Source of the DNA: Sedimentisphaerales bacterium
GTDB lineage: Bacteria; Planctomycetota; Phycisphaerae; Sedimentisphaerales; SM23-30
Assembly: GCA_963666285.1 (NCBI GenBank)
Contig: OY762711.1
Direction: 5' to 3' (one strand)
DNA: 64,000 nucleotides
The position numbers and the translations under genes were made by a program. The notes below the pieces were generated by a model. That model had not been told where the DNA came from, did no database searches, and saw nothing but the letters and a program-made list of their open reading frames with translations. The stretch's first letter is position 1. Each line of letters begins with the position of its first letter. Shown piece by piece: positions 47,989 to 63,639 of this stretch.

Positions 47989-48375
47989 ATGGTAAAGCAA
48001 AAGAATTATCAGCCTACCGACAGGGAACTACAGATACTCAGAATTCTATGGGATAACGGTCCGGCAACTGTCCGGGAAGTCAACCGCCAGATGAACGAAA
48101 TCGAAAAGACCGGATATACCACTACCCTCAAACTTATGCAGATAATGGTAGAAAAAGAACTGCTGGATCGCGATGACAGCCAGTTTAAACATATCTACAG
48201 CCCGGCGATCAGTGAAGAAAATACCCAAACTCAGGTAGTCGGCAACCTGGTAGACAAACTGTTCAGCGGTTCGGCTGAAAAACTTGTCATGCGGGCACTT
48301 TCTGCCAAAGAAGTTTCGCCCAAAGAATTGGCTAATATCAAAAAACTCATTAATGAAATAGAAGAAGGGAAATGA
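47989..48375 (+). CDS. BlaI/MecI/CopY family repressor
   Basis: PTDRELQILRILW..ATVREV..YTTTLKLMQIMVEK..KLFSGSA; likely ATG at 47989. Confidence 0.95.
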   Translation: MVKQKNYQPTDRELQILRILWDNGPATVREVNRQMNEIEKTGYTTTLKLMQIMVEKELLDRDDSQFKHIYSPAISEENTQTQVVGNLVDKLFSGSAEKLVMRALSAKEVSPKELANIKKLINEIEEGK

Positions 48376-51300
48376 TCATGGAATTATTACATAGCTTAAT
48401 TGAAGCTGAACTGACCCAAAGAATCGGATGGACTCTTATTCATTTTTTGTGGCAGGCGGCACTAATCGGCATCATCACAACTATCATTCTCAGCATCGCC
48501 AAAAAGAACTCTCCGGCAGCAAGATACCGAATTGCCTTTTCTTCGCTCTACATTATGGTACTGATTTCTCTTATTACTTTCAAATCGATTTCTATCGAAA
48601 TACCCGGCATTGATAACACAAACACTGCCGATATTGTACCGCTGGTAATTGCTGATGTACCGATAAATAATATTCCGGACAATGAAATTGTTCATCAAAC
48701 GCCCACACCGATCCAAATTACTACCGATAATAACACTAAAGAGTTTAAATTTGAAGCTCTAACACCCTATATCGCTCTTGCCTGGCTCGGCGGCATATCA
48801 ATTCTTAGCATCCTGCATATCGGCGGATGGTTCCAGCTCCAGAAATTACGTTGGCAAACCGTTAAACCCGTTGCAGAGTCTGTTAAATCGCAAATGAATG
48901 CATACGCAAAAACTCTAGGCATATCCAGGGCCGTTAACATCCTGGAATCGTCACTGGTACAGGTGCCAACTGTCATTGGACATTTCAAACCGATTATTCT
49001 GCTGCCCGCCAGTGTTATCTCCGGCATAAGCTCCGATCAGATCGCTTCACTGCTCGCCCATGAGCTGGCACATATCAAAAGAAACGACTATCTGGAAAAT
49101 ATCGTACAGACTGGTTTTGAAATTCTAGGCTTTTTCCATCCGGCCGTATGGTGGCTGTCTAAAAAAATACGTACCGAACGGGAAAACTGCTGCGACGACC
49201 TGGCTATCGAACTTTCCGGCAGCAGAATCGAATACGCCAAAGCTTTGACTGCTATGGAAGAATTACGCAGCAAACAATACAAACTCGCTGTCGCTGCTAC
49301 TGACGGTAACCTCTACTGCCGCATCCGAAGGCTGCTTATTGAAGACAAAAATAACGAAAGAATAACCTCCGGCATATATTCTGCCATGGCCACATTACTG
49401 ATTATGGGCATTATCCTCCCCTGCGCTTTCGCACTGGCGACAGCAACAGACGAAAAACCGGATGTTATGCCGGTCATTGTCGACGGTGCCCAATCTTATT
49501 ATGTGAACAAAAATGTGTCTGAGTTTACCGGACCAGAAGATCTTTCCACACCCGAAACCGCTTATGTCGCTATCTGTAAAGTACACACTGCTGACGATCC
49601 TAAAGAATGGAAACGACTAAGCGAAGAAAGAATTGCCAAGGCAATTGACACATCACGCAAACCCAACCCAAATCCAAACTGGGCAAACGTCTGCCTCCAC
49701 GCTAAAATCAGGGAAGTGCATATAAAAGATGATATGGCTTTGGTTGTTGCTGAATTACTGCAGGATTATTCCGACAAGCCTATCCGCAACCCTATCGACC
49801 TTCGCAGTTTTTCTTTCCAAAATGGTAAATGGCTCAATTCAGGTAACGGCAGAGTCAATACTATAGAGCAGGCGCGAGACGACTTCAAGCTGTCCTGCAA
49901 ACTAAAGGAAGAAGAGGCCAAACCGGTCTTCCAGCCTGAACCTGCCGAACAAATACAGGCTTACGAAGTACAAAAAAATGTATCTGAATATACCGGACCC
50001 GAAGATTTCTCCTCTCCTGAAACCGCTTACGTTGCCATAAATAGAGTTATGGCCACCGACAACACATCCGACTGGAAGCGGGTAAGCGTTCAAAAACTCG
50101 CAAAGGTTTTCTCGCCTTCCAGAAAAGCTAACCCGAATGCCAACTGGGCCAATGTAGTTTCCAACGCAAAAATTCACGGCGTTATTATAAACGGCAGCAA
50201 TGCCGTAGTAATTGCTGAATTCCTGCAGGAGTTCTCTGATAAAAAGATCTACCAGCCTATCGATGCCCGCTACCTCGAACTCGAAAACGGTAAATGGCTC
50301 AATACCGGCCAGGACAGGTTCAATTCTATCATAGAAGCGAAAGTTAAATTCAAAAATTTCATCGATAAGAATAAGCCAGACAACAAGCCCGGCCTGAATA
50401 TATTTATCGACCAGATCGATATCGACAATGACACACCCGCAGACATTATCAAAATTCTGGGCGAACCGGAAAAATATATGTGGGACAATCAAACGTTCAC
50501 CAAGGACAACCTGCCCGCTCGGTATGTAATGATTTACCCTATCCATCTAAACGTGTTCGTTACCAATAACTATATTGTAGAACTGCGAGTTGAAGGCCCC
50601 GGCGATTATATCTATGGCAACGCCCTGAAGTTCGGCTCTTCACTCGATGAAGTTATCAAAACGCTCGGCGATCCCGACGAAACTGTTACCGGGAAAGCCA
50701 ACAAATTCAAAAGCAATACGCTCTATAAAAATATCGACGGTCAGGATGGATACTGCTATTATGCCCGCGAAGATAAAAATATCAGGGTATGGCTCCGCAG
50801 CAACCTGGTAATGGCGATATATCTCACCAGGAGCGACTACAGCGACGGCGGCAGCGGCAGGAAAACATACTCCGCCGAAAATCTGCCGCCCAACAGTTTC
50901 ATCAACGAAGAAGGACACCTGGTCGATAAGGTTAACTACCCGTTTGAAACCGACCCCGCTGTTATCGGCAAATGGACCAGCGTTGATTTCGTCGACAACA
51001 TCGACCAGTTCAAACCAAAACGCAAACACTGGGGCGGCGAACTGTTTTTACAGAGTATTACATTCACTGATACCGGTGATGCAATATATAAACTGGACAA
51101 TAAGCAAAACACAAATATAGTTGTACATAAATGGACCAAAGGGCTGCTGCTCGGCACAAACACTGCCAGTAAATATACTGTCAAGGAAATCAACGGCGAG
51201 ACATACATGTTCTACGAATGGAAAAGCGGCGACTATACCATTCGTCATATGCACCCCTGCTATTATGTCCTCAAGAAGGATAAAAATAGTGGTATAGCTC

Positions 51301-53225
51301 CTGACACAATCGGTGGCAATAGCCGTGGTATAAGCATCACAGCACAAAATGAGGACAGCTCAAAACCAAAAATTTCAACGGAAATAAGGTTAATATATTC
51401 TCCAGAAAAGATCCCTCTATTACCTGTAAATGCAATGGGATCGTTTACTCTCTCCGAGAAAGAAGCAGAAGAACTAATAAAATACACGAAAAATAATGCT
51501 AGCTGCAGATCAGTAACAGCCCCTAGTATTACAACTATTGATGGAGAGCAAGCAAACCTGAATTTTTCCAAGGAAATTGTTTATGTTTTAGACGGTCAAA
51601 CAATTGCCGAAAAACAAACTGTCGATGAAGGTGTAAACATTGATATTGTCAGCAGCATCGAAGATAATAATTACTTAAATTCTAAGATTGAATATAACCA
51701 TACTTTTCTGGCTAACGAAAATACTGGCGATGTAGCAAGATCAACAATGTCAACAAACCAAAGTATCAAAATAGGACAGACTATTGTCATTGCCAGTATA
51801 ACTTTCAAAGATGGATATATTACAACATTAATCAAACCAGAAATTGCAAAACCTGTCGAGCCGGCGAGTGGAAGCGGTAATATGCCAGGTGGCATGGGCG
51901 GAGGAATGATGGGAGACATGGCTCCTCCTTCCGGAATAGTTGGTGGTATGGTTGAAGGTTTTCAACCTGGCTATAACCACACTATCACCGGACCATCAGT
52001 AAAAACTGAAGTTAGAATTGCCACACTGCCAAACAACTCTGACCTGCTAAAAGAAATAATGCAAAATCCAATTATAGATGATGCCAGGGCAAATGAGATT
52101 ATCAGTCTCACCAAAAAAGATGCAAGAAGCAGACTTCTTACGATGCCATACTGTAGTACACCTGACAACGTTCGGTCCAATTTTTCGTTTGGAGAAACAA
52201 AACTATTTATCACAAATCATATTGCACTTGACAAAAAGTTCGTTAGAGCAGATATAGAATATGAAAATATAGAAACAGGACCAGATGGAATAGCATCTTC
52301 AAACTCAAGTGCAACATCTTTAGTTATCCCTTCTGGCAAGACCTGTATAGTATCAGGCTATAATACTGCTGACTATGCAACACTACTTCTCATTAAAGTC
52401 ACTATCAATGAAGCAGAAGAAACTGCGAAGAAGGAAGCTGATAACCTGGAAGTGGTAAAGATAGAGTTCGTTCCCAATGTAGAAATGGAACAACTGGCAC
52501 AAGGTAAAAATGTACTCTGCTTAAATGTTAAAAACAAAAGCGACAAAGACCGGCTTTTCGCCGTCCATATATACACCCGCTCGCCCGATATGGGACCAGA
52601 CGGCATCGGCTGGGGAACAGTATTTTTTGAAACAATACCCGCCAAACAGACAAAACTGGTCAAAGCTCCATTCAAAATTCAAGGACCCATAACAGACAAT
52701 ACTTATGTCAGGCTCAAATACTACAACCCGGCGTCAGAAGAACAATACGACTATGAAAAACCGTTCCACGAGGAAAAACTTAATGCCGCTAAGATCAATG
52801 CTGTATTTGCAAAAGATAGAACTCCGGGTACTTTATCAAAAACCGAACCTGTTTCAAAAGAACTCACCGAATCCCTTCTAAACTTCCAGGACCTCATCCG
52901 GAACAAAGCCTATGACAAAGCATGGGATATGCTCACAGACGATTACCAGGTTTCCGAATACCAGCACAAAGGGTTAGATCGGTTCCGCAAACACATGGAA
53001 CCGGTTCAACCGTTAGATGATGGGTTCTCATGGAAGAAAGAAACTTTTCTGAATATGAAACCTGCTGCCATGAAAGCTCGCGGCCAGGCTGCCTTCCAAA
53101 ATAAAGCTTATGTATATGCCGAAACTGAAAACGAAAAATGGACTATCGTCTTCCTGCGTGACGAAAACGGTCAATGGAAAATCGACGATATAACCGGCTA
53201 CACTCCGAACGTTGTTAATATGTAG
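48372..53225 (+). CDS. BlaR1-type M56 metallopeptidase sensor with a very large mosaic extracytoplasmic region
   Basis: HFLWQ, AHELAHIKRND, FFHPAVWW, ERENCCD; tandem repeat domains; secretin-like APSITTIDGEQA. Confidence 0.92.
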   Translation: MIMELLHSLIEAELTQRIGWTLIHFLWQAALIGIITTIILSIAKKNSPAARYRIAFSSLYIMVLISLITFKSISIEIPGIDNTNTADIVPLVIADVPINNIPDNEIVHQTPTPIQITTDNNTKEFKFEALTPYIALAWLGGISILSILHIGGWFQLQKLRWQTVKPVAESVKSQMNAYAKTLGISRAVNILESSLVQVPTVIGHFKPIILLPASVISGISSDQIASLLAHELAHIKRNDYLENIVQTGFEILGFFHPAVWWLSKKIRTERENCCDDLAIELSGSRIEYAKALTAMEELRSKQYKLAVAATDGNLYCRIRRLLIEDKNNERITSGIYSAMATLLIMGIILPCAFALATATDEKPDVMPVIVDGAQSYYVNKNVSEFTGPEDLSTPETAYVAICKVHTADDPKEWKRLSEERIAKAIDTSRKPNPNPNWANVCLHAKIREVHIKDDMALVVAELLQDYSDKPIRNPIDLRSFSFQNGKWLNSGNGRVNTIEQARDDFKLSCKLKEEEAKPVFQPEPAEQIQAYEVQKNVSEYTGPEDFSSPETAYVAINRVMATDNTSDWKRVSVQKLAKVFSPSRKANPNANWANVVSNAKIHGVIINGSNAVVIAEFLQEFSDKKIYQPIDARYLELENGKWLNTGQDRFNSIIEAKVKFKNFIDKNKPDNKPGLNIFIDQIDIDNDTPADIIKILGEPEKYMWDNQTFTKDNLPARYVMIYPIHLNVFVTNNYIVELRVEGPGDYIYGNALKFGSSLDEVIKTLGDPDETVTGKANKFKSNTLYKNIDGQDGYCYYAREDKNIRVWLRSNLVMAIYLTRSDYSDGGSGRKTYSAENLPPNSFINEEGHLVDKVNYPFETDPAVIGKWTSVDFVDNIDQFKPKRKHWGGELFLQSITFTDTGDAIYKLDNKQNTNIVVHKWTKGLLLGTNTASKYTVKEINGETYMFYEWKSGDYTIRHMHPCYYVLKKDKNSGIAPDTIGGNSRGISITAQNEDSSKPKISTEIRLIYSPEKIPLLPVNAMGSFTLSEKEAEELIKYTKNNASCRSVTAPSITTIDGEQANLNFSKEIVYVLDGQTIAEKQTVDEGVNIDIVSSIEDNNYLNSKIEYNHTFLANENTGDVARSTMSTNQSIKIGQTIVIASITFKDGYITTLIKPEIAKPVEPASGSGNMPGGMGGGMMGDMAPPSGIVGGMVEGFQPGYNHTITGPSVKTEVRIATLPNNSDLLKEIMQNPIIDDARANEIISLTKKDARSRLLTMPYCSTPDNVRSNFSFGETKLFITNHIALDKKFVRADIEYENIETGPDGIASSNSSATSLVIPSGKTCIVSGYNTADYATLLLIKVTINEAEETAKKEADNLEVVKIEFVPNVEMEQLAQGKNVLCLNVKNKSDKDRLFAVHIYTRSPDMGPDGIGWGTVFFETIPAKQTKLVKAPFKIQGPITDNTYVRLKYYNPASEEQYDYEKPFHEEKLNAAKINAVFAKDRTPGTLSKTEPVSKELTESLLNFQDLIRNKAYDKAWDMLTDDYQVSEYQHKGLDRFRKHMEPVQPLDDGFSWKKETFLNMKPAAMKARGQAAFQNKAYVYAETENEKWTIVFLRDENGQWKIDDITGYTPNVVNM

Positions 53226-56595: not shown

Positions 56596-56749
56596 ATTAA
56601 AACCTCACTAAATTTCAACTAATTGCCAAAAAACAATACGACTATTTTACCAACCATTTAAACATTTGTCCAACCTCTATCCGCCAGCCACAAAAACAAT
56701 TCCACCATTACCATTTTACGCCTCATCATTTCTCCCCTCTACCCTTTTA

Positions 56750-56978
56750 CCTCTTACCTCTCACTTCTCTCTTCTCTCTTATTTTGCGTCAGCTTTAAAA
56801 CAATTCGTAAGCCGCCAGGCGAACATCATAATTTTTCATTTTTCACTATTCATTTTTCATTTCCCCTCTTACCTCTCACTTCTCTCTTCTCTCTTATTTT
56901 GCGTCAGCTTTAAAACAAGTCGTGAGCCGCCAGGCGAACACATTAACTCTTCGCTCTTCGTTCTTCACTCTTCACTCA
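56750..56978. repeat. 76-bp direct duplication embedded in pyrimidine heptamer repeats
   Basis: 56750-56825 and 56865-56940 are near-identical and end in GCCGCCAGGCGAACA; flanked by TTTTCAT/TCTTCAC-type 7-mers. Confidence 0.85.
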
Positions 56979-58406
56979 TCAATATTTCCTCCCCAAAGCT
57001 TCATAACTATTGCCAAACCGGTTCACAAAAAAATACCGCAACGCATCTATCAAATGGTCATGCTCGCCATCTTTCTCTGGCATTTCACTTAACCCGCCGT
57101 CTACCTTTTTATACCTCAACATCTGCAGCGCCTTTATCAGCCGCTTACACTTCGGATCTATCAGCAGCCGAACTATCCCATCACCACTCAGTATATAACT
57201 TCTTATCAGCTCTATCCCCTCCAATACCCTGCTCGACCGACTCTCACAACATATTCCAAAACTTACCAGTTCATCCACCACCGAACTGCCCGTTACATCA
57301 TTACGCTGCCGACCAGCCGGGTCACAATAATTTCCTGTTACCGGCCACCGCCATTTCCGCTTAATCATCTGAGCATGTTCCGCTATCGTCTTCCTTACCA
57401 TTACATGCTCGTCCAGCACCTGTACTAAACCGCCTTTCACCTGGATAAGCAAACATACCAGCGGGTTACTATAGCCAAAATCAAAACTGCGGTACAACTC
57501 AGCTCCCGCGTCATAACTCATCCGGTAAACATGTCGATTAATATCAAAGTCGTCAAATACCTGGTCACTTGCCCCTGGACGCAAACACATCATCTCACTC
57601 TGCCACCCGCGACTGCTGCCGCGACGCTTCTGAGAAATCGCGTCATCTATACCAAAGTACCCTTCACAATCCTTCGCCCTACCCCGACAATCCTCCGACA
57701 AATAACATTGAGAACATTCCCTGTCCACACACTTCTCCAATATCTCCATCAGGCACCATCGGAATAACTTGTAGCCTCCCTCTCCCGCACCTTCCACCAG
57801 TTCCGACATCAAACCATAAGGCATATGCATCGTACTCATTGCTTCCAGACGACCGGCCAGGCTTCCCTTACTCTGCGTCACATACTGAGCCGCCTGCCAG
57901 ACACTCCTGTCAAATAGCTCAACCTCATCACAACGTAAACGCTGAACATGTTGACCCCGAACACTGCTCTGCGACTGGGTCAATACCTGAACCGTCGATT
58001 GATTAGAAAACTTACACCCGTTCATCGTTAACTTATCTTTAAGAAATTCTGTATAGTTCATATCCAGCATTTCACGAAAGTAACTATACATCTGCTGAGA
58101 CTGCTGCATAGAACCGCCTAAAATCCTTATATCACAATTAGGATTGAATACACAATCTAGTAAACTTGCTATTGCCCCTAACTTCGTTTTCCCTCCTCCC
58201 CTGTTTGCCCATACTAACACATCGCCCCTTTGGGCGTCTCCTTCCAAAAACACATAACTCAAATAATCCAGCGGACTGTCATGACAGTCACATATTTTCT
58301 TTCCTGGCACACGCACCCCGCAAAATAAATCGCAATACATCGCCAGCTCATCACGATTTTGCGGCCTGTAACACTTGATTTGTTTTTCCGACCCACTCAA
58401 TTGCAT
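56979..58406 (-). CDS. Phage-type terminase large subunit
   Basis: Walker A ANRGGGKT, RGQH..RCDE Walker B, MST coupling motif, nuclease FDFGYSNP..CDPAG..HDHLIDALRY. ATG at 58406 has a GAGGAG RBS (track uses GTG 58415). Confidence 0.88.
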   Translation of the reverse strand: MQLSGSEKQIKCYRPQNRDELAMYCDLFCGVRVPGKKICDCHDSPLDYLSYVFLEGDAQRGDVLVWANRGGGKTKLGAIASLLDCVFNPNCDIRILGGSMQQSQQMYSYFREMLDMNYTEFLKDKLTMNGCKFSNQSTVQVLTQSQSSVRGQHVQRLRCDEVELFDRSVWQAAQYVTQSKGSLAGRLEAMSTMHMPYGLMSELVEGAGEGGYKLFRWCLMEILEKCVDRECSQCYLSEDCRGRAKDCEGYFGIDDAISQKRRGSSRGWQSEMMCLRPGASDQVFDDFDINRHVYRMSYDAGAELYRSFDFGYSNPLVCLLIQVKGGLVQVLDEHVMVRKTIAEHAQMIKRKWRWPVTGNYCDPAGRQRNDVTGSSVVDELVSFGICCESRSSRVLEGIELIRSYILSGDGIVRLLIDPKCKRLIKALQMLRYKKVDGGLSEMPEKDGEHDHLIDALRYFFVNRFGNSYEALGRKY

Positions 58407-58441
58407 TTGTTCCACTCCTCATTCACATGTATAATTAATAT

Positions 58442-58573
58442 ATGACTAATTCAAGTCCTTTGTCTATCTTTGTTAACTGGTGTGCTTCAATGCCGGTCTG
58501 GGTATACCTTCTGGCAATGCTTACCATTATCATAATTGTCGTTTTCCCGACCGTTTGGCGAAAAGACAACTGA
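58442..58573 (+). CDS. Putative 43-aa single-TM peptide
   Basis: MTNSSPLSIFVNWCASMPVWVYLLAMLTIIIIVVFPTVWRKDN; TTGTTC-N17-TATAAT ends 6 nt before the ATG. Confidence 0.45.
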   Translation: MTNSSPLSIFVNWCASMPVWVYLLAMLTIIIIVVFPTVWRKDN

Positions 58574-58744
58574 TTCTTTTCGTTCTTACACCAATTCCAT
58601 AACTATCTATATTCTCATTACTAATACAACAATAACCGATTTCATATCTGTTATTACTCTTCAACAATAAGCTCTATAATAAATACAGGTTTTTCCACTA
58701 GAACAAATTGGTTTTTATCTACCTCAGTAAATACCTTTACTGTA

Positions 58745-59167
58745 TTACTGCTCTTTCACTTTCTGCTCAACATTACTACCCGCTAATTTATACAGCATTT
58801 CACGTGCTTCTTCTTCTGATAATTCACAACCCGGCTGTTGTGTTTCTCCTTCACTCAACTTGATTTTTTTCAATACATCCTGGCATCGGTTTAAAATATC
58901 TACCGCTGCTTTCATCGCAACTTCATCCTTACCGTCAACCAATAGCAATCCAAGTTTGCGAACTGCTTTTACACCATACCCCGCCAACTCTATCTCTGAT
59001 TGCTTAACACACTTTTTGAATAATACTTCCAGATATCTGACAAATTCTTCATTTTCATACAGTTTTACCAGCCTTTCATAGCTCATATTATGAAATCTGC
59101 ACGCTTGACGCTCTTCCAAACCCTCAAATAGCTTGCCCGCTACGTTCATCTCCTGACGTGTCAACAT
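58745..59167 (-). CDS. HTH-containing protein, possible terminase small subunit-like
   Basis: N-terminal HTH-like segment, AVRKL..LL..E..MKAAVDIL pattern; upstream of the large terminase; AGGAG RBS. Confidence 0.5.
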   Translation of the reverse strand: MLTRQEMNVAGKLFEGLEERQACRFHNMSYERLVKLYENEEFVRYLEVLFKKCVKQSEIELAGYGVKAVRKLGLLLVDGKDEVAMKAAVDILNRCQDVLKKIKLSEGETQQPGCELSEEEAREMLYKLAGSNVEQKVKEQ

Positions 59168-59243
59168 AACTCGTTCTCCTTACAAATTAAATTTTCTTTA
59201 CTCTCAACCGTTACCAATCTCCTGAACGCTCCCAAACCTACTC

Positions 59244-59768
59244 CTATCTCTTACCTCTTCCTTCTCGCTTCTCGCTTCTCGCTCCTAACTTCTTCTCTCT
59301 CTCTCTCTTCCACAAATAATAATTCTCTTCCTCTCCAACCTTTGCCATCCCTGCCCTCTCCAGAAAACCGCTCCACCTCCCCATCTTCGCAACCGTATCG
59401 ATAAACCGAACACCCACCATAGGCATCGTCACTCTCACCAGTTTTGTCCCCAAACCCGCACCGCGATACGACGGAGCTATCACAATCCGCGACAATCGCC
59501 GACACTCTCTGTTCAAAACCGTCATCTTCAAACCTTTGTCAAAATGTAAATAATAGTCTGACAAAACCTCATCTCTCATCCGGCAATTTGCTTTCGGATA
59601 CGTATAAACAACTATACCAACCTTTCGCCTTACTTCGCCATAAATATGCAAAAACAAATATACCTTGTCTACAAAATACAATCGCTTATCCGTTCGATAA
59701 TGATACCGCCTGAACAACTCCCAGTCCCTTACCGAACCGCGGACTATCTCATATTCGCCCAACATCAC
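59244..59768 (-). CDS. GNAT family acetyltransferase (Mom-like HY motif)
   Basis: FRRYHYR and LSRIVIAPSYRGAGLGTKLV (acetyl-CoA motif A); overlaps the ATPase stop. Confidence 0.75.
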   Translation of the reverse strand: MMLGEYEIVRGSVRDWELFRRYHYRTDKRLYFVDKVYLFLHIYGEVRRKVGIVVYTYPKANCRMRDEVLSDYYLHFDKGLKMTVLNRECRRLSRIVIAPSYRGAGLGTKLVRVTMPMVGVRFIDTVAKMGRWSGFLERAGMAKVGEEENYYLWKREREKKLGARSEKREGRGKR

Positions 59769-60364
59769 TCAACCTCCAAATACTCCGCCAGCCTGTCATT
59801 CACTCCCGCCAGTACAAAACCAAAACCATATTCCTTCGCCGCCCGGCATATATTAGCACACAAGACCGAACCCGATACTTCATCCAGACTGCTGCAAAAC
59901 TCATCTGCCATTATCAGCTCCGGCCTAATACTCATCGCCAATGCCAGCCGAAACCGAAACTGCTCGCCTACACTCAACATATCATAACTCGCCATCATAA
60001 GGTACACTTCCGACAAACCCACCTTACACAGCCACCCCATAGCCTCGTCCAGCGAAACATCCTTCATACTGTCAACCAGCGAACTCTCTCTATCAAACTC
60101 CAAATCTTCTACGTCACAAACCTTATAGCCATCATCTCGCAGCCGCACCTTCAACTCTCGCATTATCGAGCTCTTTCCCCATCCGCTTCGACCGCAAATG
60201 TATGTAACCTTACCGAGACCGACCTTCACCTTGAATCTCTTTACTACCTCCCGCCTGGTGACCAGCCCGCCAACCCCAAACATCTCCGCTAACTTACTTC
60301 CTCTCACTCCCGCACCTGCCCTCAATTCATAATCAATATCTATCTCATAACTAACCATAACCAT
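59765..60364 (-). CDS. Soluble ABC-type ATPase (COG2401-like N-half)
   Basis: GRSGWGKS, LSVGEQFRFRLA, IMADEFCSSLD; no permease nearby. Confidence 0.85.
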   Translation of the reverse strand: MVMVSYEIDIDYELRAGAGVRGSKLAEMFGVGGLVTRREVVKRFKVKVGLGKVTYICGRSGWGKSSIMRELKVRLRDDGYKVCDVEDLEFDRESSLVDSMKDVSLDEAMGWLCKVGLSEVYLMMASYDMLSVGEQFRFRLALAMSIRPELIMADEFCSSLDEVSGSVLCANICRAAKEYGFGFVLAGVNDRLAEYLEVE

Positions 60365-60488
60365 CTCCTATCCCCATACCAGCGTCAGTCTGTATATGTT
60401 TTATAGCCCGCGATTTCAGCCGTGGGTCAACAGACTTCACAATAATCCATTAACTACTCTCGCCGCCAGACAATCAACTTCCAACTTC

Positions 60489-60893
60489 TCACTGGAAACT
60501 CCTGGCTTCAGCCAAAAGTTTTCTAACCTTATATTCACTCACTCCATATTTACTCGCCAGCTGACGATAACCCGTACCATCAACCAGCTTATCATACAGC
60601 AGCATACCGCCCAGCCCCTTACTCTTCCTCAATCTCAAGACAAACTTAAACGATCGCTTACCCGTCAGCAGTCTCTTCAATCTCGAATAACGCATCGAGA
60701 CCGTTCGACTGCTTGCTCCCGTCAACTCTGCTATTCGATTAAAACTCATCCCGTAACTCAACACCATCTCCAGCAGCAGCCGGTCTTGCCTTCGCAAGAT
60801 CTCCGACCGACGCTGCAGATCCTCAATTTCGGCTCGTGTACCCAATCGGCAATCTTCAAATACCAACTCATCTTCAAACTTCAACCTGCCCAT
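60489..60893 (-). CDS. Double helix-turn-helix (sigma region-4-like) protein
   Basis: GMSFNRIAELTGASSRTVSMR and GTGYRQLASKYGVSEYKVRK; likely ATG at 60893 with a GGAG RBS. Confidence 0.65.
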   Translation of the reverse strand: MGRLKFEDELVFEDCRLGTRAEIEDLQRRSEILRRQDRLLLEMVLSYGMSFNRIAELTGASSRTVSMRYSRLKRLLTGKRSFKFVLRLRKSKGLGGMLLYDKLVDGTGYRQLASKYGVSEYKVRKLLAEARSFQ

Positions 60894-61087
60894 ATCATCA
60901 CACTCCAATCTTGTGCACTCGCTTCAAATCACCGCCAAAAACTCTAACAGTTTTGCCTAACACACTTAAAAACCGTCTTCACGCTCAAAACTCACTCTTA
61001 CATTAAATTATCATCCTGTAATCCTGTCATCCTTCCTAACTCTTGGTTTTTCTAACTTACATCTTTTGTTAATTATCTATATAACAT

Positions 61088-61186
61088 ATTCTACGCCCCA
61101 TAACACGGTTCGTCAAATAAAAATCATATTTTTTTTCAAACATAATCTATAAGTTTGTTGACTATCAAACATTTACGTGCTATATT
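61088..61186. promoter_or_regulatory. Back-to-back divergent sigma70 promoters
   Basis: Minus strand TTGACG(61116)-N17-TAGAAT(61093); plus strand TTGACT(61158)-N17-TATATT(61181) with extended TG. Confidence 0.6.
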
Positions 61187-61328
61187 TTTTATAATGATAC
61201 ATGGAAATAATATTTTTAACCCGTACAAACCAACTTGTGCGACAGCTTTAAAATATCTTCCCGATGAACATCGGGAAACCTCCTTTACACTTTTTATTTT
61301 ACTCTTTACATTTTAAAGGAACAAGACT

Positions 61329-62102
61329 ATGTCCCTAGGCAAAGTACTTAGACAGCAGCGCGAAAAACTTGGCATTACCCTCGACGAACTCGCCAGGCTT
61401 ACCGACTTCAGTAAACCATATCTGTCAACCGTAGAAACCGGCAAGGTCAAAAACCCGCCCAGCGACGATCTGCTCGTCAGGCTCGAACAGCATCTAAAAT
61501 TCGAAAAAGGGTACCTGCTCCACATGGCACATATGGAACGCGTTCCGGCAGATATCAAACACACTATCGAACACAACGAAGCTGAAAACAACCGCCTTAA
61601 GAGCATCATCAAGGACCTCATAAAGTCAGACTCCGCCAAACCAAGCTCAAAAAATAAAAAGATTCTTGCCAATATTACTTCAAAAGGTACCGAGCTCAAA
61701 CAGCCGCGAAACCTGATACCTATCATCAATAAAGTTTCCGCAGGCTACCCAGCTGACTATTCCGATCTCGACTACCCGCCAGGCGGCGCCGACGATTACG
61801 TACGATGCCCGGACCTCAACGACCCAAACGCATTCGCCGTCCGAGTCATCGGCGACTCCATGGAACCTAAATTCCACGAAGGTGATATCATTGTCTTCTC
61901 GCCCGCACGCAAAGTCGAATCAGGCGACGACTGCTTCGTACGTATCAATGATCCTTACGAGGCTACCTTCAAACGAGTTTACTTCGAAGACAACGAAACT
62001 CTGCGACTCCAGCCGAGAAACCAGAAATATTCACCAATCTTCATGCCCGTCACCAAGATCAGCGGACTGTGGAAAGCCGTCATGCGCTACGAACAATTGT
62101 AA
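61329..62102 (+). CDS. XRE-HTH plus peptidase S24 repressor (LexA/CI-like)
   Basis: LRQQREKLGITLDELA..YLSTVETG; VSAG cleavage site; RVIGDSMEP; ATFKR. Confidence 0.92.
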   Translation: MSLGKVLRQQREKLGITLDELARLTDFSKPYLSTVETGKVKNPPSDDLLVRLEQHLKFEKGYLLHMAHMERVPADIKHTIEHNEAENNRLKSIIKDLIKSDSAKPSSKNKKILANITSKGTELKQPRNLIPIINKVSAGYPADYSDLDYPPGGADDYVRCPDLNDPNAFAVRVIGDSMEPKFHEGDIIVFSPARKVESGDDCFVRINDPYEATFKRVYFEDNETLRLQPRNQKYSPIFMPVTKISGLWKAVMRYEQL

Positions 62103-62258: not shown

Positions 62259-62711
62259 ATGAAAAAGTTCCCACTCGGCTGCTTCTTTACATTTATAATT
62301 GTCGCATTATTATTCTCTATCCTGTTCCCTGCATTACAGAAAGCGAGTGAAGGTGGTCTCGGACCAATGTATCGCTACATCTATACAGAAGATCTTCAAA
62401 AGGAATTCGATAAAAATGGAAAACTTCCAGATGTTATTAAGTTCGATGATAACGAAATATTGAACTATTACCCTGAAAACTGGGACAAAGCTGATAAGAT
62501 ACTCGTATTCTATAAGGTATATCTAAATTTTGGACACGTGAAATATGTTATCGGCATGGGCAACGGCGACTACATTGTAACAGATGAAGATATCGCTATT
62601 AAAAAAATATTAGACAACTTCGACCTGACATACAAAAACACTGAAGAAGATGAAAATACCTCTGACACCAAAAATGAAAAACAACACGGCGGACCAATAC
62701 GATTAAAATAA
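62259..62711 (+). CDS. Hypothetical membrane-anchored protein (pilin-like N-terminal helix)
   Basis: IIVALLFSILFPALQKA hydrophobic segment. Confidence 0.55.
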   Translation: MKKFPLGCFFTFIIVALLFSILFPALQKASEGGLGPMYRYIYTEDLQKEFDKNGKLPDVIKFDDNEILNYYPENWDKADKILVFYKVYLNFGHVKYVIGMGNGDYIVTDEDIAIKKILDNFDLTYKNTEEDENTSDTKNEKQHGGPIRLK

Positions 62712-62882
62712 TATTTCCGTGTCAGTCCATTATATTTTGGTAGCCCACGGTTTCAACCTATGCCCAGCAGAACCTGTGGCTTCAAAAAATCGAAGCTTTA
62801 TGCATAAACAAAATGAACGAAACAGAACTATTCATATCCATAGCTGATACAAAATCAATATGGAAACTGCAAACCAAATATG

Positions 62883-62935
62883 GTTGAAATTTTTCCAACT
62901 TTTTAGTTGAAATTTTTCCAACCGTGTGTTATATT
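62883..62935 (+). promoter_or_regulatory. Promoter overlapped by two identical 17-bp operator-like boxes
   Basis: GTTGAAATTTTTCCAAC at 62883 and 62906; TTGAAA(62907)-N17-TATATT(62930) with extended TG. Confidence 0.65.
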
Positions 62936-62971
62936 TTAATAGTAATAATACTATTACAGGAGTGTCTGGTA

Positions 62972-63283
62972 ATGGATTGCGAAAAGGTAAGAAATATTAT
63001 AAATACTGCCATATTGGACAGTTCCAGGGCATTAAGTGTGTTTAATAGCAAATTTTGCGACAATCCTAAAAAATACGAACATGAAGACGCAACCCTCGCA
63101 TCAGGCATGTGGACTCTGATCAGTCGCCTAATGGAATACAGAAAGCTGTGTTATAAGCAGGAAGTTTTCTCTTTGTGCGCTAATAACTGTGTTATCGAAG
63201 ATAACCTCGAAGCGATCGAGAAAGATTTAACCAAACTGATAAACTTACACAAAAGACTGTCTTATTGCATCCTGTTGAGATAA
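62972..63283 (+). CDS. Hypothetical protein
   Basis: ATG at 62972 after CAGGAG; 103 aa; downstream of the promoter. Confidence 0.55.
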   Translation: MDCEKVRNIINTAILDSSRALSVFNSKFCDNPKKYEHEDATLASGMWTLISRLMEYRKLCYKQEVFSLCANNCVIEDNLEAIEKDLTKLINLHKRLSYCILLR

Positions 63284-63297
63284 AGGAAATTGTAATT

Positions 63298-63639
63298 ATG
63301 ATAACCCGTCAGCAAGCTAACTTGATGAAAGAAATTTCAAATGCTGTTGTTAATCTTATAACTAATAACGATATTCGACAGAAAACTATTTCTGAAATAA
63401 TCGGCAAAGACAAAGGCACCGTCTCTAAAATTTTCAAAGGCGAGTTCAACTTCTCGCTCGAAGACCTGCAGGAAATATCACTCCGCACCGAACTGCCGGT
63501 CCTGCCCATTGTGCTTTCATACTTCTGCGAAAAGGGCGACCTTATATCCAAAGACCAGAAAAATATTGAAGTCCTGAAAAACGTCGAACAATCTTTGACC
63601 TCGTCCCTGGAACAACTAAAAAAATTAAAGAAAAAATAA
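63298..63639 (+). CDS. XRE-family HTH regulator
   Basis: IRQKTISEIIGKDKGTVSKIFKGEFNFSLEDL..I; ATG at 63298 after AAGGA. Confidence 0.75.
   Translation: MITRQQANLMKEISNAVVNLITNNDIRQKTISEIIGKDKGTVSKIFKGEFNFSLEDLQEISLRTELPVLPIVLSYFCEKGDLISKDQKNIEVLKNVEQSLTSSLEQLKKLKKK

Follow-up and report, generated by a model that had tools for sequence, protein, structure and literature searches.

In Bacillus subtilis, PBSX is a single block that comprises lysis genes and a contractile tail and functions as a bacteriocin; VSH-1 is inducible by mitomycin. In gene transfer agents (GTA) of the RcGTA type, phage-derived genes have been endogenised at several loci and are inherited vertically, according to the accessible part of PMC9662315. 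In Caulobacter, the GTA activator genes GafYZ are controlled by RogA, a repressor with helix-turn-helix (HTH) and S24 domains that lacks the catalytic residues, as far as the available text of PMC9632790 goes. PBSX is described in the sections available of PMC4243946 as conserved, non-infectious and damage-inducible, with an Xre repressor and the sigma-like factor Xpf, and as packaging random host DNA, in fragments of 13 kb after mitomycin C. The present work concerns a window of 64,000 nucleotides, i.e. the whole stretch of DNA that was analysed, from contig OY762711.1 (assembly GCA_963666285.1; genome G000 below) of a Sedimentisphaerales bacterium of the planctomycete class Phycisphaerae, and in it a cassette in which a large terminase (TerL), a small-terminase-like gene (TerS), a GNAT acetyltransferase, an ABC-type ATPase and a double-HTH regulator form a leftward unit, divergent from a CI-like XRE-S24 repressor. 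The original prediction, made from the letters alone, had taken it for a maintained packaging system with structural genes elsewhere rather than a decayed prophage. No description of this Phycisphaerae system was found in a full-text literature search, mostly outside subscription journals and exclusive of supplements; in the accessible part of Esterman et al. a planctomycete is mentioned only for an unrelated prophage (PMC7947584), and the available text of Zheng et al. reports that a Poriferisphaera strain releases hexagonal particles without lysis, which those authors assign to a 21.9-kb extrachromosomal phage (PMC10945688).

Here, I argue that the cassette supplies, with very little doubt, the packaging and the regulation for a system of phage origin whose head half lies elsewhere, the whole stemming from the domestication of a linked packaging-plus-head system. 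In two other genomes, G131 and G068, the genes for an SPP1-like portal and a major capsid protein come right after TerL or no more than 1.3 kb beyond it, and homologues of these head genes (45-58% identity) are found in G000 between host genes at a second locus (Table 1), 629 kb from the packaging half as measured across contig ends. TerL adjoins the same portal and capsid in both G131 and G068, the two halves having originally been neighbours. Across 13 long contigs (G000 included) they are now between 3 and 982 kb apart, with 10.6 kb in G042; in G029 the GNAT gene lies 3' of the head operon, and in G057 the HTH, ABC and GNAT genes lie 2 kb from the portal. The portal and capsid expected outside the window by the original prediction are therefore present, some 629 kb away, the genome-wide searches for both having placed no match inside it, and a genome devoid of head genes, which was to speak against such a system, is not what was found; the tail locus also expected is another matter, for no tail tube was recognised among the representative downstream reading frames scanned. 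The whole reading, according to which the system was domesticated early in Phycisphaerae and has since been inherited with the chromosome, a GTA-like role in DNA packaging included, is held here with moderate confidence.

The system is widespread in the order. The sample comprised 61 genomes, G000 included, of which 40 are of high quality (completeness of 90% or more, contamination of 5% or less). TerL was detected in 52 of the 61 (two contig-end fragments counted) and in 39 of the 40, nearly always in one copy and at one place, so that the patchy distribution expected of an ordinary prophage gene is not observed and the anticipated single-copy conservation is. The best named TerL matches (58-61% identity) carry the labels Sedimentisphaerales or Phycisphaerae, and TerL identity decreases from 59-62% within the genus to 43-51% in other families. 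The CI-like repressor occurs in 52/61 genomes (37/40 of high quality), as a single copy in all but one, GNAT in 46/61 (37/40), the capsid in 49/61 and the portal in 48/61, the latter count including one fragment of 88 codons (35/40 each), and TerL, portal and capsid were all detected in 33 of the 40. In a class sample of 151 genomes, TerL was found in 95 and the capsid in 90: both in 86, TerL alone in 9, the capsid alone in 4 and neither in 52, related genomes not being independent in this count; four families of the class are without both genes. Outside the class, i.e. among 272 genomes of a phylum sample of 301 (a split counted from search tallies), a full-length TerL match occurs in 3 and a partial one in 8 more. 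Most of 20 loci compared across the class show the gene order CI / HTH-ABC-GNAT-(ParB)-TerS-TerL, with the HTH gene as the first of the unit; in many Sedimentisphaerales host genes interrupt this order.

Gene trees were compared for the 37 genomes in which TerL, portal, capsid and RpoB are all present at 70% coverage or more, out of 45-51 per gene. Splits shared with the RpoB tree number 19/34 for TerL, 20/34 for the portal and 17/34 for the capsid (0.15-0.19 upon label shuffling), and among the splits with support of at least 0.95 those in conflict with RpoB are 0/14, 0/17 and 1/12, respectively. TerL and portal distances show the highest correlation among the pairs tested (0.84). Ratios of nonsynonymous to synonymous divergence (dN/dS), taken from the unsaturated pairs among ten tested, are 0.07-0.16 for TerL, 0.10-0.17 for the portal and 0.05-0.14 for the capsid, with 0.02-0.06 for RpoB, and the synonymous divergence of the three phage-derived genes is similar to that of RpoB. 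In the pair G037/G042, eight further genes of the system, namely HTH (0.13), ABC (0.16), GNAT (0.10), TerS (0.10), scaffold, adaptor and two downstream genes, range from 0.08 to 0.16, the host gene rpiB being at 0.075. Judged by these trees and ratios, TerL, portal and capsid are inherited vertically with the host, under purifying selection, TerL following the host RpoB tree and not that of prophages. The cassette is thus not, on the comparison of genomes, a decaying prophage; conserved, vertically inherited, selected and matched by a head locus, it bears out the maintained packaging system that had been proposed, and the neutral evolution which was to argue otherwise is not seen.

A tree of the ATPase half (51 sequences; 17 of 50 order-level sequences were taken in and the split TerL of G139 was left out) groups the host-inherited copies at a bootstrap of 92, save G098 and two genomes of other classes. 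A separate clade (99) is formed by G065 and two copies of G166, which have a different head; the deep branches are weak (46-60). One of the G166 copies lies inside a prophage with integrase, RecT and methyltransferases, and a prophage of this type is plausible as the kind of ancestor from which the cassette arose. In G065 (L255) and G166 (L257), ABC-GNAT-TerL is joined to the other head type, made of a phrog_145 portal, a Gp13-like capsid and glycosyltransferase-like genes, in L257 along with a repressor; this arrangement may possibly reflect an exchange of the head module or a domestication on a second occasion. None of 50,697 phage records covers 80% of TerL, and the best capsid match is at 32%. 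A single-protein scan of viral contigs returned no match, and an alignment scan of them returned split terminases, with 38-39% over the ATPase half, weak nuclease matches and no head genes recognised nearby. In the closest viral relatives (L073, L077-L079, L081 and L087) the terminase is encoded by two genes, the nuclease part lying several genes upstream of the ATPase part.

The six open reading frames of the cassette are all open at the positions first reported, and the layout, a leftward unit divergent from an XRE-S24 gene, stands as predicted with one correction: the gene described as a small HTH is small-terminase-like, for 12 of 22 aligned homologues match the TerS family phrog_2538 (best E 3.5e-9), the window's own 140-amino-acid protein having no family match, phrog_2538 included. 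TerL matches phrog_2 (E 1e-25) and PF17289 (above the cut-off). Its Walker A (residue 72), Walker B (160) and coupling (194) motifs and the nuclease aspartates 312, 365, 453 and 457 are invariant in 19/19 aligned homologues, in keeping with the intact motor that had been claimed. Equally invariant (19/19) are four cysteines at residues 229-243, between the ATPase and nuclease domains, probably a metal-binding linker. The solved structures nearest TerL, only terminase nuclease regions, are 5oe8 and 2wbn, which I take to belong to headful packagers. The ABC ATPase matches PF00005 (ABC_tran, E 2e-8) and phrog_11143 (E 6e-17), and its homologues keep Walker A in 40/41, the signature in 41/41 and Walker B in 39/41. 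The double-HTH protein matches Sigma70_r4_2 (E 5e-7) and the Q-like phrog_79 (E 4e-6), and the repressor S24 PF00717 (E 1.6e-21), HTH_3 and phrog_4 (E 1e-35). For GNAT, the Pfam matches are below the cut-off (E 0.001-0.005) and phrog_886 is matched at E 5e-14; its homologues share a conserved His-Tyr pair, and its profile finds among solved structures generic GNAT matches only, the best of them weak (E 0.0045). It may possibly be akin to the DNA-modifying GNAT Mom of phage Mu, and the literature search found no paper tying ABC ATPase, Mom and terminase together.

Table 1. Features of the packaging locus (window positions) and of the head locus (genome G000, contig C1)
Feature	Position	Strand	Description
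Large terminase TerL	56979-58415	-	478 aa; ATPase + RNase H-like nuclease; phrog_2, PF17289
TerS-like gene (small terminase-like)	58745-59167	-	140 aa; homologues match phrog_2538; position before TerL
GNAT acetyltransferase	59244-59768	-	174 aa; phrog_886
Soluble ABC-type ATPase	59765-60364	-	199 aa; PF00005, phrog_11143; no permease partner nearby
Double-HTH regulator	60489-60908	-	139 aa; sigma-70 region 4-like + Q/Mor-like; candidate late activator (putative role)
Palindrome TGTTA-N10-TAACA	61067-61086		Candidate operator of the CI-like repressor
Sigma-70-like promoter TTGACG-17-TAGAAT	61088-61116	-	Consensus scan, 10/12 matches; faces the leftward unit; putative function
CI-like XRE-S24 repressor	61329-62102	+	257 aa; PF00717, HTH_3, phrog_4
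Head locus	G000:C1:64914-70510		Portal (PF05133), scaffold (PF06810, below cut-off), insertion sequence, SU10-type capsid (PF17236), 210-aa adaptor-like gene

The repressor carries an Ala138-Gly139 cleavage site, Ser177 and Lys215, and among 44 homologues the Ala-Gly site is kept in 40, the Ser motif in 44 and Thr-Phe/Leu-Lys in 40; by this site and the Ser-Lys dyad it is predicted to be of the RecA-cleavable S24 type (lambda CI/LexA). The canonical LexA, UmuD and RecA are separate genes in the genome. Upstream of the HTH gene, the palindrome is exact in 10 of 30 loci and within one mismatch in 20 (shuffles 0.06 and 1.0), bearing in mind that it was picked from dyad counts in the same data and that some of the loci are close kin. 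It occurs in 0/30 portal upstream regions and in 7/30 repressor upstream regions, all of the latter in a family in which the two genes are divergent. In the window it directly follows the sigma-70-like promoter, and similar -35 and -10 boxes precede or overlap it, by eye, in many homologous loci. With a matrix built without the window site, the window palindrome ranks joint first of the genomic sites, and scores are low at lexA, recA, umuD and the portal; a LexA box is ruled out by the low scores at the first three. In loci whose repressor gene has relocated, the palindrome remains beside the HTH gene, which is what an operator under a trans-acting repressor should do; it is regarded as a candidate operator on which that repressor acts. 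In the portal upstream regions (L295-L324), an A/T tract followed after 14-26 bases by CAAG-N1-3-(G/C)TT(A/G) was observed in 8/30 (shuffles 0.02), a pattern that was chosen after viewing and has 10 matches on C1; it is a candidate site for the HTH activator.

At the head locus, the predicted fold of the 210-amino-acid protein resembles the Mu neck subunit 5ydn (Z 6.9, root-mean-square deviation 3.9, 102 residues), a score that unrelated helical bundles tie, and Foldseek gave no match at E 0.001; by position and this faint structural match, it is tentatively called adaptor-like. Downstream of the adaptor, each of eight further conserved genes occurs in 5-10 of 23 head loci and a small membrane protein (with a weak holin match only, E 0.006) or lipoprotein in 14-15. 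One downstream gene, of 608 amino acids, has a fold like that of baseplate hubs (Mu, T4 gp27, VgrG; E ~1e-7), from a model of low confidence (pLDDT, predicted local distance difference test, 54), and finds strong matches in 25/61 order genomes and fragments in two. In G000, none of these genes downstream of the adaptor is present except within a Mu-like prophage. Because the hub gene is not found at orthologue level in many lineages, head-only versions of the system are, as far as gene content tells, common and under selection.

Other heads in the genome were considered. HK97-type heads were rejected as partners of TerL: the four clusters lie each in a prophage with a terminase of its own and are not conserved. 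The HK97-type portal PF04860 occurs in 6/61 order genomes, in G000 only within prophages; the Mu-type portal PF06074 gave no match, in a search whose control was also undetected; and a comparison of the window TerL with eight further terminases encoded in the genome gave no significant similarity (best E 0.05). The prophage head-tail clusters of C1 lie at about 965-995, 2114-2142, 2156-2184 and 5279-5299 kb. Of these, the first and second are nearly identical twins that face opposite ways, and the fourth, a Mu-like one, includes genes distantly homologous to those for the hub and the lipoprotein in the domesticated system. The contigs C2, C3 and C4, of ~65 kb each, carry their own terminases of 618-625 amino acids and share stretches of 10-28 kb at 68-75% similarity; they are apparently related phages of one family, either extrachromosomal or co-assembled.

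A scenario may then be put forward. Domestication would have taken place early in the class Phycisphaerae, and the head half (portal, scaffold, capsid and adaptor-like genes, in some lineages with baseplate, fibre and lysis-like genes) would later have drifted to another locus. The CI-like repressor would bind TGTTA-N10-TAACA and hold the leftward unit off until DNA damage causes its RecA-stimulated self-cleavage; the double-HTH protein, thereby freed, could activate the distant head operon, and TerS and TerL would cut DNA and fill the heads by a headful mechanism. The cargo is expected to be host chromosomal DNA, because the scattered loci could neither excise nor replicate, and the ABC/GNAT pair may modify this cargo or a component of the motor. 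The cells would thus probably make their own DNA-filled particles, which most likely act as a gene transfer agent, a candidate new one; both the GTA function and the SOS-inducibility are what I infer from the genes.

Several observations weigh against this scenario. Broken genes do occur in the order: TerL has an in-frame stop codon in G043 and G047, the capsid gene of G020 is split, and G055 is also among the genomes with broken copies. With a threshold of 15 bits, the operator matrix picks out 18 sites in the genome. Neither tail tube nor tape measure, nor an endolysin, was recognised among the representative downstream reading frames scanned, several of which have no family match and were not folded. 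The baseplate hub has no orthologue-level match in G000, its genus, the families f6 and f8, or the closed genomes G031, G037 and G042, so that injection through a tail would be impossible in these lineages. The TerS-like protein appears to keep its N-terminal helical domain, unlike the TerS of RcGTA, which has no specific DNA-binding domain according to the available text of PMC7947584, and packaging may for this reason not be random.

The shortage of tail genes leads to a reading in which the same domesticated system fills heads with DNA but transfers no genes, serving PBSX-like undelivered packaging, as decoys, for the storage or release of DNA, or to interfere with the assembly of infecting phages. 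To this I give a minor though appreciable probability: baseplate genes have been lost repeatedly while head and motor stay under selection, no tube was found, and PBSX has its repressor, sigma-like factor, terminase, portal and capsid genes laid out in a similar way. PBSX killing needs a contractile tail, and no contractile sheath was recognised among the same representative reading frames, several of them unmatched and not folded; decoys would leave the retention of an intact ATPase-nuclease motor without explanation. It is a good deal less probable that the cassette works without this head, either by induced cutting of the chromosome (abortive infection, DNA release) or by loading host DNA into the heads of resident or infecting phages, the head operon being kept separately. 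TerL is indeed retained without a detectable capsid in 9/151 class genomes and 5/40 high-quality order genomes; the closed, 99% complete G067 (L243) has the full CI-HTH-ABC-GNAT-ParB-TerS-TerL cassette and no portal or capsid match with the G000 queries; ABC-GNAT-TerL is joined to a different head type in G065 and at one G166 locus; and in G000 there are four head clusters within prophages, together with three contigs that look like phages. These head-lacking genomes were judged by G000 protein queries, and in a PF17236 profile search of five of them the control was also undetected. TerL and capsid, on the other side, occur together in 86 and are jointly absent from 52 of 151 genomes (kin not being independent), TerL was ancestrally adjacent to this very portal and is most closely correlated with it in distance (0.84, the best tested), and an HK97 portal that might be borrowed is missing from most relatives.

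Another explanation, rather unlikely but compatible with the domesticated system at class level, is that the system is real in the class and already crippled in G000. An insertion sequence (IS) of 1,427 bp (L263:9161-10587; G000:C1:67161-68587) separates the scaffold gene from the capsid gene, whose start is 40 bp further on, and is young, as judged from six other copies at 99.9-100% identity (one more is at 89%, and one copy is inside a prophage); contigs from sequencing runs break at it. The window GNAT is without an internal stretch of ~85 amino acids present in most homologues, the ParB-like gene is absent from the cassette, and the holin-like and lipoprotein genes are absent from the genome outside a Mu-like prophage. 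Yet all ten genes are open, with their catalytic motifs, the IS is intergenic and co-directional and leaves the ribosome-binding site in place, and the GNAT of G017 is shortened likewise. As to the remnant of an ordinary, recently integrated prophage, the idea is hardly tenable. It can draw on the sister clade of TerL, which includes a true prophage bearing integrase and RecT (G166), and on the weak deep branches (46-60); against it stand the single copy in 39/40 genomes, the congruence with RpoB, dN/dS of at most 0.17 with RpoB-like synonymous divergence, the different distances between the halves in different hosts and the lack of any close relative among the 50,697 phage records, and it is already refuted unless mis-binned genomes mimic the host tree.

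The surroundings of the cassette agree only in part with the direct host-gene flanks first claimed. On the left its neighbours are indeed host genes, one heparinase-like and one for a class III aminotransferase; on the right, three small AT-rich reading frames (150, 119 and 124 amino acids; 62259-63639), the last with an XRE HTH and none of the three seen in clustered homologous loci, come between the repressor and GH2. There is no tRNA in the window; its reading frames at 1-48 kb were listed without annotation and no dedicated search was made for integrase or att sites in it. Neither replication nor integrase genes adjoin the cassette in the loci that were inspected, no genome-wide integrase search having been made. 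A 115-bp tandem duplication (85% identical; 56745-56974) lies 3' of TerL, and G-poor short repeats at 59248-59283 reach into the 3' end of the GNAT gene. At 48372-53225 the window encodes a protein of 1,617 amino acids whose N-terminus looks M56/BlaR1-like to the eye and in which several domains are repeated.

Only a small number of GTA lineages of independent origin have been established, none of them in Planctomycetota in the papers found. The system is present in most sampled families of Phycisphaerae, which are abundant sediment and marine bacteria, and would, if the scenario is true, give them a further major means of exchanging genes or repairing DNA; that it has repeatedly shrunk to head and motor raises the question of tail-free delivery. 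The repressor, operator and candidate activator offer a direct handle for induction, which the head locus alone does not. A caution also follows, in that phage-like particles and terminase matches from these bacteria need not be viruses.

Measured against the GTA definition in the accessible text of Kogay et al. (PMC9662315), three of six features can be recognised on sequence evidence. Proteins derived from Caudoviricetes are represented by the matches of TerL, TerS, portal, scaffold and capsid, and by the hub fold in tailed lineages; the genes are endogenised across several loci, the halves being 629 kb apart in G000 with host-gene flanks; and vertical inheritance with host co-diversification is seen in the single conflict among 43 supported splits. 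Co-packaging of the system's own gene set is implausible at the hundreds of kb that separate the loci in most closed genomes, yet the loci are adjacent in G131. That this is a further independent GTA lineage, as old as much of Phycisphaerae and, in the lineage of G000 and several others, a tailless, head-only one with a cleavable CI-type switch, host DNA marked by ABC/GNAT and tail-free uptake (e.g. by membrane vesicles), is a speculative combination that I consider improbable in full.

The RcGTA family, Rhodogtaviriformidae, is marked by an HK97-type portal and capsid cluster, and membership in it is ruled out, since the families inherited together here are PF05133 for the portal and PF17236 for the capsid. 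The portal is here SPP1-like and the capsid of SU10 type, with a scaffold, HK97-type families not being conserved; no tail tube was found, ABC, GNAT and ParB genes belong to the unit, and the host class is another. The class of temperate prophages does not fit either, for the repressor abuts the packaging unit, host genes flank both the packaging and the head locus, and the distribution is neither patchy nor incongruent with the host (integrase not searched genome-wide). The closest replicative relative found, the G166 prophage (contig C54), has a sister-clade TerL, a ParB-domain gene before the terminase and a CI-like repressor, and differs in its integrase, in the RecT, exonuclease and methyltransferase genes between repressor and terminase, in its phrog_145 portal and PF20036 capsid, and in being sporadic. 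With PBSX the system shares the switch of a repressor and a sigma-like factor (Xre/Xpf in the available text of PMC4243946), and differs from it in having split genes, no recognised sheath or tube and, in many lineages, a head only. Like BaGTA and BhGTA/VSH-1 (PMC9662315, in the part available), it would be independently domesticated with split loci, the gene families and hosts being apparently different. The Caulobacter RogA resembles its repressor in being of the HTH-S24 type and differs in that the catalytic residues, lacking in RogA (PMC9632790, text available), are kept in Phycisphaerae. Finally, with RcGTA it has in common head and terminase genes at several loci, their vertical inheritance, and a terminase related to those of headful packagers (PMC7947584, in the part available).

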